Shown: positions 57,396 to 60,628 of the stretch, piece by piece | Layout of the letters: each line of letters opens with the position of its first letter | How positions within the stretch are numbered: position 1 is the stretch's first letter | Source: Candidatus Shapirobacteria bacterium | GTDB taxonomy: Bacteria; Patescibacteriota; Microgenomatia; PFEM01; JBDRBL01 | NCBI GenBank assembly: GCA_043822685.1 | Contig: JBDRBL010000003.1 | Span: 4,659 to 68,658, forward strand | Direction: 5' to 3' | DNA length: 64,000 nt | Notes under the pieces: generated by a model | What the model saw: only the letters and a program-made list of their open reading frames with translations | Told to the model about the DNA's origin: nothing | The model's database searches: none | Translations under genes and position numbers: made by a program

Positions 57396-57734
57396 ATGAA
57401 ATTGGTGGATGCGGTTTTGAGTCAAAAAGAAATCGTGGAGTTGCACAAACACTATGGCGGTTATGTAAAAATTACGGCAGAAATTGAAAAAGAAGAATTG
57501 ATTGTTGGAACGGAACTCCACGCCGACGGGGAAAAAGTTTTACTGACTCGTGGCGGCCAACAAGACAATATTTGGGGTGGGGGAATTGATTTGGAGGCCA
57601 AGATTGTGGATACTACAGCCGTTTTGAATTTGCGCCCGTGTTTGGGCAATGACAGTTTGGAAATTCTTTTACCGGAAAAAAGAGAAAAATTTATTAAGTT
57701 GGTCAAAAAATATTTTGTCAAGTTATGGTCTTAG
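57396..57734 (+). CDS. uncharacterized 112-aa protein, cassette copy A, gene 1
   Basis: paralog of 59744-60082, sharing H.HYGGY..IT, HADGEK.LL, NIWGGGI.LE, NLR. Confidence 0.5.
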   Translation: MKLVDAVLSQKEIVELHKHYGGYVKITAEIEKEELIVGTELHADGEKVLLTRGGQQDNIWGGGIDLEAKIVDTTAVLNLRPCLGNDSLEILLPEKREKFIKLVKKYFVKLWS

Positions 57735-57940
57735 ACAAAAAAAGTCTTAAAGCGGATGCTTTGGCCAATCTGTATCGGGCGGCGTATTATTTGGCTAAAG
57801 GTCAGACCTCAACCAGTCGGCTTTTATTGGCCCGCGCTCAAAAAATTTTAAATTTTAATTTGGATCTCGATGCTTCTCGATCCGATCTTTACTGGGCGGA
57901 AAAAATTCTCGATCAGTATCAAAAACAAAAAGTTCAATAG
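57725..57940 (+). CDS. uncharacterized 71-aa helical protein, cassette copy A, gene 2 (translationally coupled)
   Basis: 10-nt overlap with gene 1; paralog of 60075-60323 (shared L..L.RAA...A.AQKIL). Confidence 0.45.
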   Translation: MVLDKKSLKADALANLYRAAYYLAKGQTSTSRLLLARAQKILNFNLDLDASRSDLYWAEKILDQYQKQKVQ

Positions 57941-57966
57941 TTCGAATTATTGAAGTATTTATTTTA

Positions 57967-57992
57967 CTATGATGATATGAATCATCGTAGTG
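57967..57992. repeat. copy of the palindromic element between convergent genes
   Basis: CTATGATGATATGAATCATCGTAGTG. Confidence 0.45.
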
Positions 57993-58242
57993 ATTTTGTG
58001 AGGGTGATTCTTTTGTTGGGAAAGTCGAACTGTAATTCATAATCAGCAAAGAGTGAGGTGCCGGCCAAAGCCTCCGAACCGGCCGTCAAAGTTGCCGGGA
58101 CCGTTTTGGGATGATCTTTTTCATCCTCAATGGCTAAGTATTTACCCAAGTTCTTTTCTTCCATTTTGCTACTGATTTTCTGGTAAATAGCCAGACCTTT
58201 TTGAGAAAGCTCTTCAGGATAAACGGTTGGCAAGGAATTCAT
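57982..58242 (-). CDS. hypothetical protein
   Basis: ORF track only. Confidence 0.3.
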   Translation of the reverse strand: MNSLPTVYPEELSQKGLAIYQKISSKMEEKNLGKYLAIEDEKDHPKTVPATLTAGSEALAGTSLFADYELQFDFPNKRITLTKSLR

Positions 58243-58276
58243 GCTTTTAGTTTACCAAAATGGTATGATTATTTCA

Positions 58277-58951
58277 ATGCGTCAAATTACCGTTATCAAG
58301 TGGGATGGGCGGAAAGAGCCGTATGAGCAGAATAAGGTCGTTGCCTCGCTCGTGCGCTCTGGGGTTGGTCAAGCCGATTTGGGCAAACTTTTGGGCGAAA
58401 TTGAAGGCGAATTGACCGATCCGATCACCACCAAACGGCTTTTTGAAATTGTTGATAATATTTTGGGTCTGTACAAACTGGAAAAACCGCGAGAGCAATA
58501 TCATTTGCGGGACAAACTGGCGGTAATGGATCCGTTTGAGTTTGAAAAATTTATCCAAAAGATTTTGGAAGAAGAGGGTTATCAATGTGAAGGGAACGTA
58601 GTCGTGCCGGGTTTTTGGGTGGAACACCAGATAGATGTCGTGGCACAAAAGGGTGATAAGGTTGTGATGGTGGAGGTGAAGCATCATGACAATCCCCATC
58701 GACTGACCGGTTTGGGCGATGCCTGTGAGTTGTGGGCGAGGCTGGAAGATTTGGAGCATGGCTATCGGGAAAGCAAAAATCCTTATAATTTCAATCAGGC
58801 GTGGCTGGTGGTCAATACTAAATTTTCCGAACACGCGATCAGATATGCCAAGGGGAAAAATTTGTGGCTGACGGGCTGGCGGTATCAATTAAAAGATGGC
58901 ATTGAAGTCCGAGACGGGCTTGAAAAACAGATAGAAAAAGATTTAATTTAG
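58277..58951 (+). CDS. ATP-cone domain fused to an Mrr-like (PD-(D/E)xK) restriction endonuclease domain
   Basis: ITVIKWDGRKEPYEQNKVVASL...YHLRDK ATP-cone pattern; PFEFEKFIQKILEEEGYQ...DVVAQKGDKVVMVEVKHH Mrr_cat; start set at 58277 just after a TG-extended -10 GGTATGAT. Confidence 0.55.
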   Translation: MRQITVIKWDGRKEPYEQNKVVASLVRSGVGQADLGKLLGEIEGELTDPITTKRLFEIVDNILGLYKLEKPREQYHLRDKLAVMDPFEFEKFIQKILEEEGYQCEGNVVVPGFWVEHQIDVVAQKGDKVVMVEVKHHDNPHRLTGLGDACELWARLEDLEHGYRESKNPYNFNQAWLVVNTKFSEHAIRYAKGKNLWLTGWRYQLKDGIEVRDGLEKQIEKDLI

Positions 58952-58966
58952 TTTAAAGGAGGTTGT

Positions 58967-59725
58967 ATGTTTGATTTAACGGGCAAAAAGGCATTGGTGA
59001 CGGGGGGGTCAAGAGGGATTGGCCGGGGAATTGCTTTGGCGCTGGCCAAACAAGGAGCCGATGTGGCGGTCAATTATCGCTCTAATCAAGTCGCGGCTGA
59101 AGCGGTTGTTGGAGAGATTAAAGCGTTGGGTCGGCAATCTTTGGCTATCCAAGCCGATGTGGCGCAAAAAGCTTCGGTCGTGGCGATGTTTGAGCAAATA
59201 AAAAGCCAGTGGGGAAAATTGGATATTTTGGTCAACAACGCCGGGATTGTATTTTCCCTGCCGGTGGAGCAAACAACCGAGCAACAATGGGATCAGACTT
59301 TGGCGACCAACCTAAAAGGCCAATTTTTGTGTGTCCAAGAAGTCCTAAAAATGATGGGCCAAGGCGGTCGGATTATTAATTTAAGTTCGATTGCTTCCGG
59401 TGGAGTGGGAGCCGGTTTTGGCAACTCGTCGGCCTATGTGGCCTCCAAGGGCGGGGTAATCGGCTTGGTTGAGGATTTGGCCGTGGAGTTGGCGCCCAAA
59501 GGAATTAATATTAATGCCATTGCCCCAGGAATTATTGCCACCGATATGACGAAAGAGTTTTTGGGCGACGAACAGGTGAAAGCGGGCTTTTTGGCGAAAA
59601 TTCCCAAAAAACGCCTTGGCAAGCCGGAAGACATCGGCGCGGCGGCGGTTTATTTGGCCTCCGATGAGGCGGATTATGTCACCGGCACGGTTTTGTACGT
59701 CGACGGCGGCTGGCTGACGGGGTAA
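58967..59725 (+). CDS. fabG: SDR family 3-oxoacyl-ACP reductase-like oxidoreductase
   Basis: TGGSRGIGRGIA cofactor motif, NNAG, catalytic YVASK. Confidence 0.8.
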   Translation: MFDLTGKKALVTGGSRGIGRGIALALAKQGADVAVNYRSNQVAAEAVVGEIKALGRQSLAIQADVAQKASVVAMFEQIKSQWGKLDILVNNAGIVFSLPVEQTTEQQWDQTLATNLKGQFLCVQEVLKMMGQGGRIINLSSIASGGVGAGFGNSSAYVASKGGVIGLVEDLAVELAPKGININAIAPGIIATDMTKEFLGDEQVKAGFLAKIPKKRLGKPEDIGAAAVYLASDEADYVTGTVLYVDGGWLTG

Positions 59726-59743
59726 TGTGGTAAAATTGGTTCA

Positions 59744-60082
59744 ATGGCGATCGTTTTAACCAAAAACAATTTATCTTTGGCTGATTTTCGGAAGGCTTGT
59801 GGGGATTATGAAAGTTATCTGAAAATTACCATTGATATTGAGCAAGAAATTACAGCTCTGGGTGGTGAATATCACGCGGATGCGGAAAAGATTTTGCTGG
59901 AACAGGGTTCAAAGCAAAAAAACATTTGGGGTGGAGGGATTAATTTGGAAACCGGTCAATACGAAACGATGGCGATGGTTAATTTGCGCGCTGGTCGTAA
60001 CAACAGTACCGATATTTTAGATGCTCAAGCGAGAAATAAATTTTTAAAATTGGCCCAAAAGATTTTGCAAGCATATGTCTGA
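59744..60082 (+). CDS. uncharacterized 112-aa protein, cassette copy B, gene 1
   Basis: paralog of 57396-57734. Confidence 0.5.
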   Translation: MAIVLTKNNLSLADFRKACGDYESYLKITIDIEQEITALGGEYHADAEKILLEQGSKQKNIWGGGINLETGQYETMAMVNLRAGRNNSTDILDAQARNKFLKLAQKILQAYV

Positions 60083-60323
60083 TCGAGAGAAAAAAATCCT
60101 GAATTGTTTTACCGATTTGCAACGGGCGGCGGTGGCTTGCGCGACGCAAGGTTGGCAAACCGAAAAAATTTTTCTTGCTCATGCCCAGAAAATTTTGCAT
60201 GATTTGCGTTTGCCAGCGGTTTTGTGGGCCATTAGGCAGGCAGAGCAGATGACCAATTCTGTTTACCGTGCCGACAAACTCTTGACTCTTGGCTTAAGAT
60301 TAAAAGGTGGTTGGGAGGTTTAA
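60075..60323 (+). CDS. uncharacterized 82-aa helical protein, cassette copy B, gene 2
   Basis: 8-nt overlap with gene 1; paralog of 57725-57940. Confidence 0.45.
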   Translation: MSDREKKILNCFTDLQRAAVACATQGWQTEKIFLAHAQKILHDLRLPAVLWAIRQAEQMTNSVYRADKLLTLGLRLKGGWEV

Positions 60324-60628
60324 TGACCGATGCAGATTTTTTGAATTCGGACATACCGGTATTGGTGGATTTTTACGCTGACTGGTGCGGACCATGCCAG
60401 ATGGCCGGGCCGGTGCTGGAGAAGATCGCGGCTGATTACAAAGGCAAGATTAAGCTGGTAAAAATTAACGTAGATGAAAATCAGGCCTTGGCACAAAAAT
60501 ATGGCGTGGCGAGTATTCCGACGGTGATTTTGTTTAAAGAGGGCAAAGAAAAAGAGAGAGTTATGGGGTATCAGGGAGATGAGGGATATCGTAATTTAAT
60601 TTTGAAAAATTTAAAAATTAAAAATTAA
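60311..60628 (+). CDS. trxA: thioredoxin
   Basis: WCGPC active site. Confidence 0.85.
   Translation: MGGLMTDADFLNSDIPVLVDFYADWCGPCQMAGPVLEKIAADYKGKIKLVKINVDENQALAQKYGVASIPTVILFKEGKEKERVMGYQGDEGYRNLILKNLKIKN

Follow-up and report, generated by a model that had tools for sequence, protein, structure and literature searches.

The window studied here, a 64,000-nucleotide stretch of Candidatus Shapirobacteria DNA, carries two short cassettes of two overlapping genes each, separated by a gene for a putative nuclease and a gene for a short-chain dehydrogenase (SDR). It had been proposed from the letters alone that the cassettes are products of a local duplication, that they resemble toxin-antitoxin or small defence modules, and that the whole 3-kb stretch may be a defence island. 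The question is thus what the two-gene unit is, and whether its neighbours have anything to do with it.

Two pairs of overlapping genes

All four open reading frames of the original prediction are present on the forward strand. Cassette A consists of A-large (57396–57734, 112 aa) and A-small (57725–57940, 71 aa), and cassette B of B-large (59744–60082, 112 aa) and B-small (60075–60323, 82 aa). The description of them as two paralogous, coupled cassettes with start/stop overlaps also holds: the end of A-large and the start of A-small share 10 nt (ATGGTCTTAG), and those of B-large and B-small share 8 nt (ATGTCTGA). The stop codon of B-small in turn overlaps the ATG of a thioredoxin gene (TAATG). 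Promoter and terminator scans gave counts at the level of shuffled sequence and were uninformative.

Both large proteins belong to the Pfam family DUF5674 (PF18924, a profile of 109 positions with a gathering score of 27 bits), with A-large reaching 61.5 bits over profile positions 2–108 and B-large 69.3 bits over positions 5–108. All 97 homologues of B-large are likewise PF18924 members, and the NCBI name for the B copy is already "DUF5674 family protein". In Pfam, NCBIfam, PADLOC and PHROGs the large proteins match nothing other than DUF5674, and A-small and B-small match no family at all. The statement that neither family could be recognised was therefore sound, the large protein being an uncharacterised Pfam family without described function or structure (DUF5674 or PF18924 appears in no paper) and the small one being without any family. 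The motif H.HYGGY..IT.EIE, said to be common to the large proteins, survives in part: Y..Y.KIT..IE is shared, and the rest of the motif is not.

The two copies are old paralogues

The large proteins of the two cassettes share 50% identity over 86 aa (E 3e-27) and the small ones 39% over 33 aa (E 1e-5). When partner orthologues are used as a profile, A-small and B-small match it with E values of 1.6e-25 and 6.9e-14, which are circular since both proteins are rows of that alignment. At the DNA level, a blastn comparison found similarity between the cassettes over 35 nt only, which rules out a recent duplication. A-large is 52–63% identical to its A-type orthologues and 45–50% identical to B; A and B are each closer to orthologues in other genomes than to each other, and the nearest relative of A is the same locus for the large and the small gene. 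A and B are thus old paralogues of distinct subfamilies (A-type and B-type), each with cognate orthologous pairs elsewhere, so that the idea of a recent or local duplication has to be given up. No second copy of the pair was found within 5–6 kb in the 158 other DUF5674 loci examined, and the two cassettes simply happen to be neighbours, 2 kb from each other, in this genome.

DUF5674 occurs with a downstream partner

DUF5674 is distributed over CPR bacteria, Acidobacteriota, Planctomycetota, other phyla and cyanobacterial megaplasmids. An overlapping or abutting downstream partner follows 151 of the 159 DUF5674 genes examined, and the eight genes without one comprise seven contig ends and one truncated gene. 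In the reference set of 81 genes (80 reference-genome loci plus the two copies in the window), with the partner defined as a protein of at least 60 aa starting between −45 and +25 nt from the stop of the large gene, 79 have a partner and the two exceptions are contig ends; 37 of these 79 pairs overlap through ATGA. The corresponding figure for metagenome loci is 72 of 78; of the other six, five are contig ends and one is a truncated gene. A separate look at Nostocales megaplasmids showed the pair there too, and an apparent natural fusion of the large and small proteins is found in one locus (L052). Each cassette thus represents a two-gene module that is widespread and self-contained.

The identity matrices of the large and small proteins are correlated (r = 0.63, Mantel p = 2e-4), and DUF5674 and its partner co-diverge as cognate pairs. 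On average the large proteins are 50.6% identical and the small ones 34.5%, the partner being the faster-evolving of the two.

For B-small, the AlphaFold2 model (pLDDT 94) is a four-helix bundle with helices at residues 3–23, 27–43, 47–57 and 62–78. Such a partner is absent from every family model, and a word-indexed database search retrieved only two homologues of B-small. Since partners of the A type naturally span 63–92 aa, a reading of A-small as a truncated pseudogene was rejected; A-small aligns with these partners, which have the signature NLYRAA...LYWAEKILDQY, and the 10-nt overlap seen in cassette A is kept in 11 of 16 A-type loci. The partners of the type seen in the window (g1) and the more widespread ones (g2) align in the same register in two hhalign runs, with P values (0.004–0.012) that are not significant; the two groups are treated as positional equivalents, probably very divergent ones. 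A role of the HPt type was also considered for the partner and rejected, because the histidine of its helix 2 is not conserved.

Genomic neighbourhood and the defence-island proposal

The protein encoded between the cassettes at 58241–58951 does combine an ATP-cone with an Mrr_cat restriction-endonuclease domain (E 7e-11), as had been noted, and it shows weak domain-level PADLOC matches, for example to the nuclease domain of ZorD (E 4e-6). These matches are what could speak for a defence island in which both cassettes act with the nuclease. The adjacent gene at 58967–59725 encodes an SDR that scores above the NCBIfam cut-offs of two subfamilies (glucose 1-dehydrogenase and FabG) and below the cut-off of the FabG equivalog; its earlier label, fabG, is thus not secure. 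The genes around the cassettes are otherwise housekeeping genes, namely, together with this SDR, those for a P-type ATPase, thioredoxin and thioredoxin reductase, which does not suit a defence island.

Comparison across the family points the same way. The ATP-cone-Mrr, thioredoxin and TrxB neighbours recur in none of the 158 other DUF5674 loci. The 142 immediate neighbours collected from 79 genomes fall into 125 Pfam families with no enrichment in defence or mobile-element functions; few of them match any PADLOC model, and those that do are mostly candidate PDC families. None of the four cassette proteins matches a PADLOC model and neither type of cassette protein matches PHROGs. A phage or viral origin was also looked for, and INPHARED, IMG/VR and PHROGs contain no copies. 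Because of the missing PADLOC and PHROGs matches, the lack of viral copies and the absence of the nuclease from all 158 other loci, the defence island is unsupported; these comparative data already largely refute it, and we regard it as scarcely credible. The surrounding genes are unrelated to the module, and the labels "defence island" and "local duplication" should be dropped for this window. Nor did the family prove to be a housekeeping one kept in synteny with fabG, the alternative against which the original prediction had been set, as only 9 of the 158 other loci have an SDR gene near the pair.

No conserved third gene stands beside the pair. Several contexts do recur on a small scale: secA lies directly upstream of six A-type cassettes, with proS and serS nearby too; genes for PPDK_N and PEP-utilizers swivel domains surround the pair in six CPR loci, and Sat-CysC/CysQ/SLC13 clusters contain it in seven loci, in both cases with differing gene order. 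The PPDK-like and PAPS contexts together make up only about 13 of the 158 loci, and they may reflect shared ancestry within subclades. His_Phos_1 genes occur near the pair in six loci, and in one genome an OmpR/HisKA two-component pair adjoins it. HicAB or Fic-like genes are seen beside some copies, in a few loci.

A predicted active site in DUF5674

DUF5674 is a compact alpha/beta protein (AlphaFold2 model of B-large, pLDDT 93.5). In 119 sequences from more than 10 phyla, 18 residues are near-invariant, each being conserved in at least 87%: K27, D31, G40-G41-E42, H44-A45-D46-A47-E48, L51, G55-S56, W62-G63, E74, N80 and N86. B-large has all 18, and A-large has them save for the conservative variations G41T, A47G and S56G. 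The invariant H44 lies in the motif E-[YL]-H-A-D at the start of helix 44–53, as judged from the alignment and the model. So strict a conservation over so many phyla looks enzyme-like, and the constellation of His44, carboxylates and Lys27 is the predicted active site.

Our preferred reading, to which we assign a probability of roughly 45%, is that DUF5674 may be a small enzyme, similar to hydrolases, whose cognate partner is obligate, and that it serves a non-toxic resident function. Translational coupling would allow the partner to be made in fixed proportion to DUF5674, to which it is predicted to bind as an obligate subunit that regulates, targets or inhibits it. Instead of an enzyme, the pair could be non-enzymatic, with DUF5674 as a ligand-, metal- or protein-binding adaptor that holds a cofactor or client through its invariant residues, and with the four-helix bundle as a structural or chaperone-like partner. 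We consider this improbable, as 18 near-invariant residues in 112 aa, including the G-G-E-x-H-A-D-A-E run and the G-S turn, would more commonly mark a site of catalysis or substrate binding, and the operon contexts are enzymatic.

As for the chemistry of the putative enzyme, it probably acts on phosphoryl groups, the likeliest reaction being the hydrolysis or transfer of a phosphoryl-type group (from phosphohistidine, another P–N bond, or a pyrophosphate or anhydride). This suggestion is made because of a weak structural and motif resemblance to PHPT1 and because of the PPDK-like and PAPS-synthesis operons in two subclades. PHPT1 is the janus/Ocnus phosphohistidine phosphatase (PF05005; PDB 2nmm, 2ai6 and 2hw4); its catalytic histidine, His53, belongs to an aromatic-H-x-D motif where a helix begins. 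Foldseek returned nothing for the DUF5674 model in the PDB at E ≤ 0.001, Pfam Ocnus gave no match to DUF5674 proteins at E ≤ 1, cross HMM searches between DUF5674 and janus gave E ≥ 0.3, and hhalign against a diverse janus profile gave a probability of 1.6%. Against a vertebrate-only janus profile, the DUF5674 score was reached by 17 of 200 block shuffles. Y43 and G64/G65, which form part of the resemblance, are not conserved across the DUF5674 family. Homology between DUF5674 and PHPT1/janus is thus not supported statistically.

The sites themselves also differ. Of the PHPT1 residues K21, R45, R78, S94 and H102, only a lysine (K27) is colinear in DUF5674, and R45, R78, S94 and H102 have no evident counterparts. 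The conserved set of DUF5674 contains no arginine and no second histidine, and its site is acidic (D31, E42, D46, E48 and E74), in contrast to the basic pocket of PHPT1. PHPT1 furthermore works by itself, whereas a partner accompanies DUF5674 in every case. A more specific proposal would make the pair an unrecognised, widespread prokaryotic phosphohistidine (or other N-phosphoryl or anhydride) hydrolase system, a distant or convergent counterpart of eukaryotic PHPT1 that is gated or targeted by its partner and resets split-PPDK-like swivel carriers or histidine kinases; this we hold to be a long shot.

Comparison with toxin-antitoxin systems

Like type II toxin-antitoxin modules, both cassettes consist of two small, adjacent, co-directional and overlapping genes, and a new addiction or abortive module, in which one protein is toxic and its cognate partner neutralises it, is a serious rival, even if on balance a somewhat less likely one. 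The toxin could be the conserved DUF5674 enzyme, in the reversed gene order known from higBA and hicAB; alternatively, the four-helix bundle could be the toxin and its antitoxin an enzyme, as in HepT-MntA, a type VII system. Much of the genomics suits such a module: an autonomous unit with highly variable neighbours, a patchy distribution across phyla, two divergent copies in this genome, and a partner that evolves much faster than the large protein while co-diverging with it as a cognate pair. To this can be added that the module is found among IS elements on 31 conjugative or mobilizable megaplasmids of Nostocales, that one Nostocales plasmid copy is split by TnpB, and that some copies adjoin the HicAB or Fic-like genes mentioned above. 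However, searches of Pfam, NCBIfam, PADLOC and PHROGs matched neither protein to a model of a toxin, an antitoxin or a defence system, viral copies are lacking, and conservation of the large protein between phyla is unusually strong. The module is usually present once per locus, keeps a stable synteny with secA and tRNA synthetase genes in several loci, and is embedded in PAPS and PPDK-like operons with rearranged gene order, all of which argue against addiction.

Among known systems, HepT-MntA is similar in that the upstream gene encodes an alpha/beta protein and the downstream gene a helical bundle, each of about 110 aa, in that the genes overlap, and in being distributed widely but patchily, with cyanobacteria and CPR bacteria among the hosts. 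The proteins nevertheless differ: there is no NTP_transf_2, HEPN or DUF86 match in the large proteins or in 63 partners (searched for HEPN/DUF86 at E ≤ 1), and, in a consensus read by eye, the partner lacks Rx4-6H and DUF5674 lacks the GSx(n)DxD nucleotidyltransferase motif. Membership in the HEPN-MNT group was rejected on these grounds. With higBA, hicAB and mqsRA the pair shares overlapping small genes, a conserved protein encoded first and a faster-evolving cognate second, as well as some plasmid-borne copies. It differs from them in showing no homology and in a second protein without a recognisable DNA-binding domain (HTH, RHH or other), a further point against a toxin-antitoxin role. A non-toxic resident function is favoured over an addiction module only narrowly.

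Implications for the DUF5674 family

Three points are new here. DUF5674 is never alone, being half of an obligate, co-evolving and coupled pair with a four-helix-bundle protein that no family model describes, and it has an enzyme-like invariant constellation of histidine, carboxylates and lysine. Third, some Nostocales that can be cultured and manipulated genetically have it, among them Trichormus variabilis ATCC 29413 and Tolypothrix PCC 7712, so that the function of DUF5674 is directly testable. If the pair turned out to be a toxin-antitoxin system, both its family and its fold would be new; a proven role in hydrolysing phosphohistidine or other phosphoryl groups would close a gap in how bacteria turn over phosphohistidine.

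Two diverged DUF5674 cassettes in the window

All four ORFs of the original prediction, from a metagenome-assembled genome (MAG) of Candidatus Shapirobacteria (CPR/Microgenomates), were found in place on the plus strand: A-large (57396-57734, 112 aa) and A-small (57725-57940, 71 aa) form cassette A, and B-large (59744-60082, 112 aa) and B-small (60075-60323, 82 aa) form cassette B. Both large proteins are members of DUF5674 (PF18924), a family that is already catalogued and uncharacterised. The genes overlap by 10 nt in cassette A (...TTATGGTCTTAG) and by 8 nt in cassette B (...CATATGTCTGA). The two large proteins share 50% of 86 aligned residues (E 3e-27), and the two small proteins 39% of 33 (E 1e-5). 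A profile built from orthologues of the partner also matches the small proteins (E 1.6e-25 and 6.9e-14), values that are circular since both proteins are rows of the profile alignment.

The proposed local duplication is not borne out as a recent event: the DNA similarity between the cassettes amounts to only 35 nt in the IWGGG-coding segment. A-large is 52-63% identical to A-type orthologues elsewhere (at least 17) and 45-50% identical to B, and B-large reaches up to 87% identity with its own orthologues; the small proteins divide along the same A/B lines. The A-type partners carry a common signature, NLYRAA...LYWAEKILDQY. Since their lengths span 63-92 aa and the 10-nt overlap is kept in 11 of 16 A-type loci, A-small, at 71 aa, is a short but normal member of this type. 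No other locus examined showed a second copy within 5-6 kb, and a search of the window for a third copy found none. A and B are not products of a recent duplication.

A gene for a P-type (HMA-domain) ATPase lies 12 nt upstream of cassette A, which is followed by a weak, AT-rich 13-bp hairpin and a T-run (57964-57993). Next comes a convergent minus-strand ORF of 86 aa (57982-58242), for which no family match was found and whose start codon overlaps that of the opposite-strand nuclease gene by 2 nt. The nuclease and fabG genes proposed to lie between the cassettes are present, the second in a more general form. The 236-aa product of the first (58241-58951, plus strand) combines an N-terminal ATP-cone (E 3e-4, short of the Pfam cut-off) with a C-terminal Mrr_cat restriction-endonuclease domain (E 7e-11), matches PADLOC defence-system models and PHROGs weakly at the domain level only, and would be a nucleotide-sensing nuclease. 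The second (58967-59725, plus strand) exceeds the NCBIfam subfamily cut-offs for glucose 1-dehydrogenase and FabG and falls below the FabG equivalog cut-off (237 vs 298 bits), so that the name fabG is insecure and the predicted product is a generic SDR. Cassette B sits inside a tight string of nuclease, SDR, B-large, B-small, thioredoxin and thioredoxin reductase genes. The B-small stop overlaps the thioredoxin ATG as TAATG (60300-60325 region), with a Shine-Dalgarno GGGAGG within the last codons of B-small; the TTG at 60311, listed as the thioredoxin start, is probably not the true one. Along window positions 1-64000, GC skew is positive in nearly all 2-kb bins and cumulative skew climbs steadily, which fits a single replichore with a strong plus-strand gene bias.

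DUF5674 and its partner form an obligate pair

We have collected 80 reference-genome loci which, with the two copies in the window, comprise 81 DUF5674 genes from CPR lineages, Acidobacteriota, Planctomycetota, Gemmatimonadota, Methylomirabilota, Omnitrophota, Elusimicrobiota, Myxococcota, KSB1 and others. We counted as a partner any ORF on the same strand that is 60 aa or longer and starts -45 to +25 nt from the DUF5674 stop. Such a partner follows 79 of the 81 genes, the two exceptions being contig ends, and 37 of the 79 pairs have the classic ATGA overlap. Among 78 further metagenomic genes, 72 are paired; five of the others lie at contig ends and one is truncated. The two proteins diverge together, as their identity matrices correlate (r = 0.63, Mantel p = 2e-4), with mean identities of 50.6% for the large and 34.5% for the small protein; in an identical word-indexed database search, B-large had 97 homologues and B-small two. 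DUF5674, a conserved alpha/beta protein, and its partner, a four-helix bundle, are an obligate, co-evolving and translationally coupled pair.

The partners split into two groups, g1 (63-93 aa, Microgenomates and relatives, including A-small and B-small) and g2 (100-125 aa, all other lineages), the latter with the consensus RW..F...QQ.LMI.NE..RA...ER.L.L.DLT...RRELLRWR. Profile comparison of g1 with g2 gave an identical register in both runs and was not significant (P 0.004-0.012). The g2 partners matched no recurrent Pfam family and are annotated in RefSeq as hypothetical proteins. In one Acidobacteriota long-read MAG (L052:4923-5630), DUF5674 and a g2-type partner form a single 235-aa ORF, which may be a genuine fusion or a frameshift/indel artefact.

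Genomic neighbourhoods of the pair

The 142 immediate neighbours of the pair in 79 genomes include no conserved third gene and represent 125 Pfam families, each found in at most four loci. A defence island had been proposed for the 3-kb stretch in which the nuclease gene lies between the cassettes. Few of these neighbours match PADLOC, and ATP-cone-Mrr, thioredoxin and TrxB adjoin the pair in no other locus, so that this reading is now highly improbable. Searches of phage genomes and IMG/VR found no DUF5674 matches.

Four contexts recur, each within subclades. In six CPR loci, the pair lies among split PPDK-like genes in variable order, comprising a PPDK_N ATP-grasp protein and as many as four paralogues with a terminal PEP-utilizers swivel domain, a phosphohistidine carrier. 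Arrays of such swivel proteins, up to four paralogues that vary at the N-terminus and share a C-terminal PEP-utilizers domain, enclose the pair in L016:289-9819, L059:47-4578 and L067:4069-8859; L059 and L067 have an additional, separate PPDK_N ATP-grasp protein, and KilA-N and Bro-N genes are interspersed in L016. Seven loci place the pair within a rearranged Sat-CysC/CysQ/SLC13 sulfate-activation cluster. These loci (L010, L011, L021, L024, L037, L039 and L066) belong to one DUF5674 subclade with partners starting MKNWYK..., and contain a Sat-CysC fusion, CysQ and an SLC13/CitMHS transporter in several gene orders, with sugar epimerases nearby.

Among close relatives, six A-type cassettes have SecA immediately upstream, and other recurrent neighbours of the pair are ProS, SerS and a His_Phos_1 protein. 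The gene for the last (histidine phosphatase superfamily branch 1) was seen in six loci from metagenomes: it follows the pair in L125, L126, L140, L142 and L150 and lies two genes upstream in L164. HicAB or Fic-like genes adjoin a few copies, and an OmpR/HisKA two-component pair lies directly downstream in one genome.

Thirty-one conjugative or mobilizable Nostocales megaplasmids bear the pair among IS elements; the two genes overlap as ATGA, and the partner is 124 aa long. On plasmid pNsp_b of Nostoc sp. ATCC 53789 (L087:5998-8254), an RNA-guided endonuclease TnpB gene splits the pair; the 124-aa hypothetical protein there is partner-like by size and position, and 4 kb upstream are two genes with the annotation 'four helix bundle protein'. 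L059 (a Curtissbacteria MAG) and L060 (an Uhrbacteria MAG) are assigned to different candidate phyla and have partner N-termini identical over the 60 residues compared, with matching gene lengths and order and coordinates offset by 12 nt, which suggests mis-binning or very recent transfer.

A possible function for the pair

We infer that DUF5674 and the four-helix bundle form a complex, in which DUF5674 would be the active component and the bundle would regulate, target or inhibit it. The PEP-utilizers swivel proteins, the HisKA kinase and ATP sulfurylase/APS kinase are phosphohistidine or anhydride contexts that fit a phosphoryl or pyrophosphoryl hydrolase, and make up a small minority of loci. 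Our tentative reading, at a probability of roughly 0.45, is that the pair consists of a small hydrolase-type enzyme and an obligate cognate four-helix-bundle subunit, probably with a phosphoryl-group substrate. A non-enzymatic binding pair we consider doubtful.

A relation of DUF5674 to the phosphohistidine phosphatase family PHPT1/janus does not reach significance. A Foldseek search gave no match, hhalign against a vertebrate PHPT1 profile gave P 0.004 (equalled by 1 of 200 column shuffles and 17 of 200 block shuffles), the alignment was lost against a diverse janus profile (probability 1.6%), and HMM cross-searches with janus were null. Unlike PHPT1, DUF5674 has an acidic rather than a basic site, and its Y43 and G64/G65 vary across the family. 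Within the hydrolase reading, a phosphohistidine phosphatase specifically is thus improbable.

In architecture, the module most resembles two-gene units of an enzyme and its cognate partner, as in toxin-antitoxin or type VII systems. Defining features of characterised toxin-antitoxin families, HEPN-MNT, janus/PHPT1, HPt domains and PADLOC systems were looked for and are absent, so the module lies outside them; a toxin-antitoxin-like pair is somewhat unlikely, and we retain the enzyme with its cognate subunit as the preferred reading. No description of the obligate partner, of the co-divergence, of the invariant constellation or of the carriage by tractable cyanobacteria was found in the searchable literature. 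Taken together, the DUF5674 pair is a solid, testable 'conserved unknown'.
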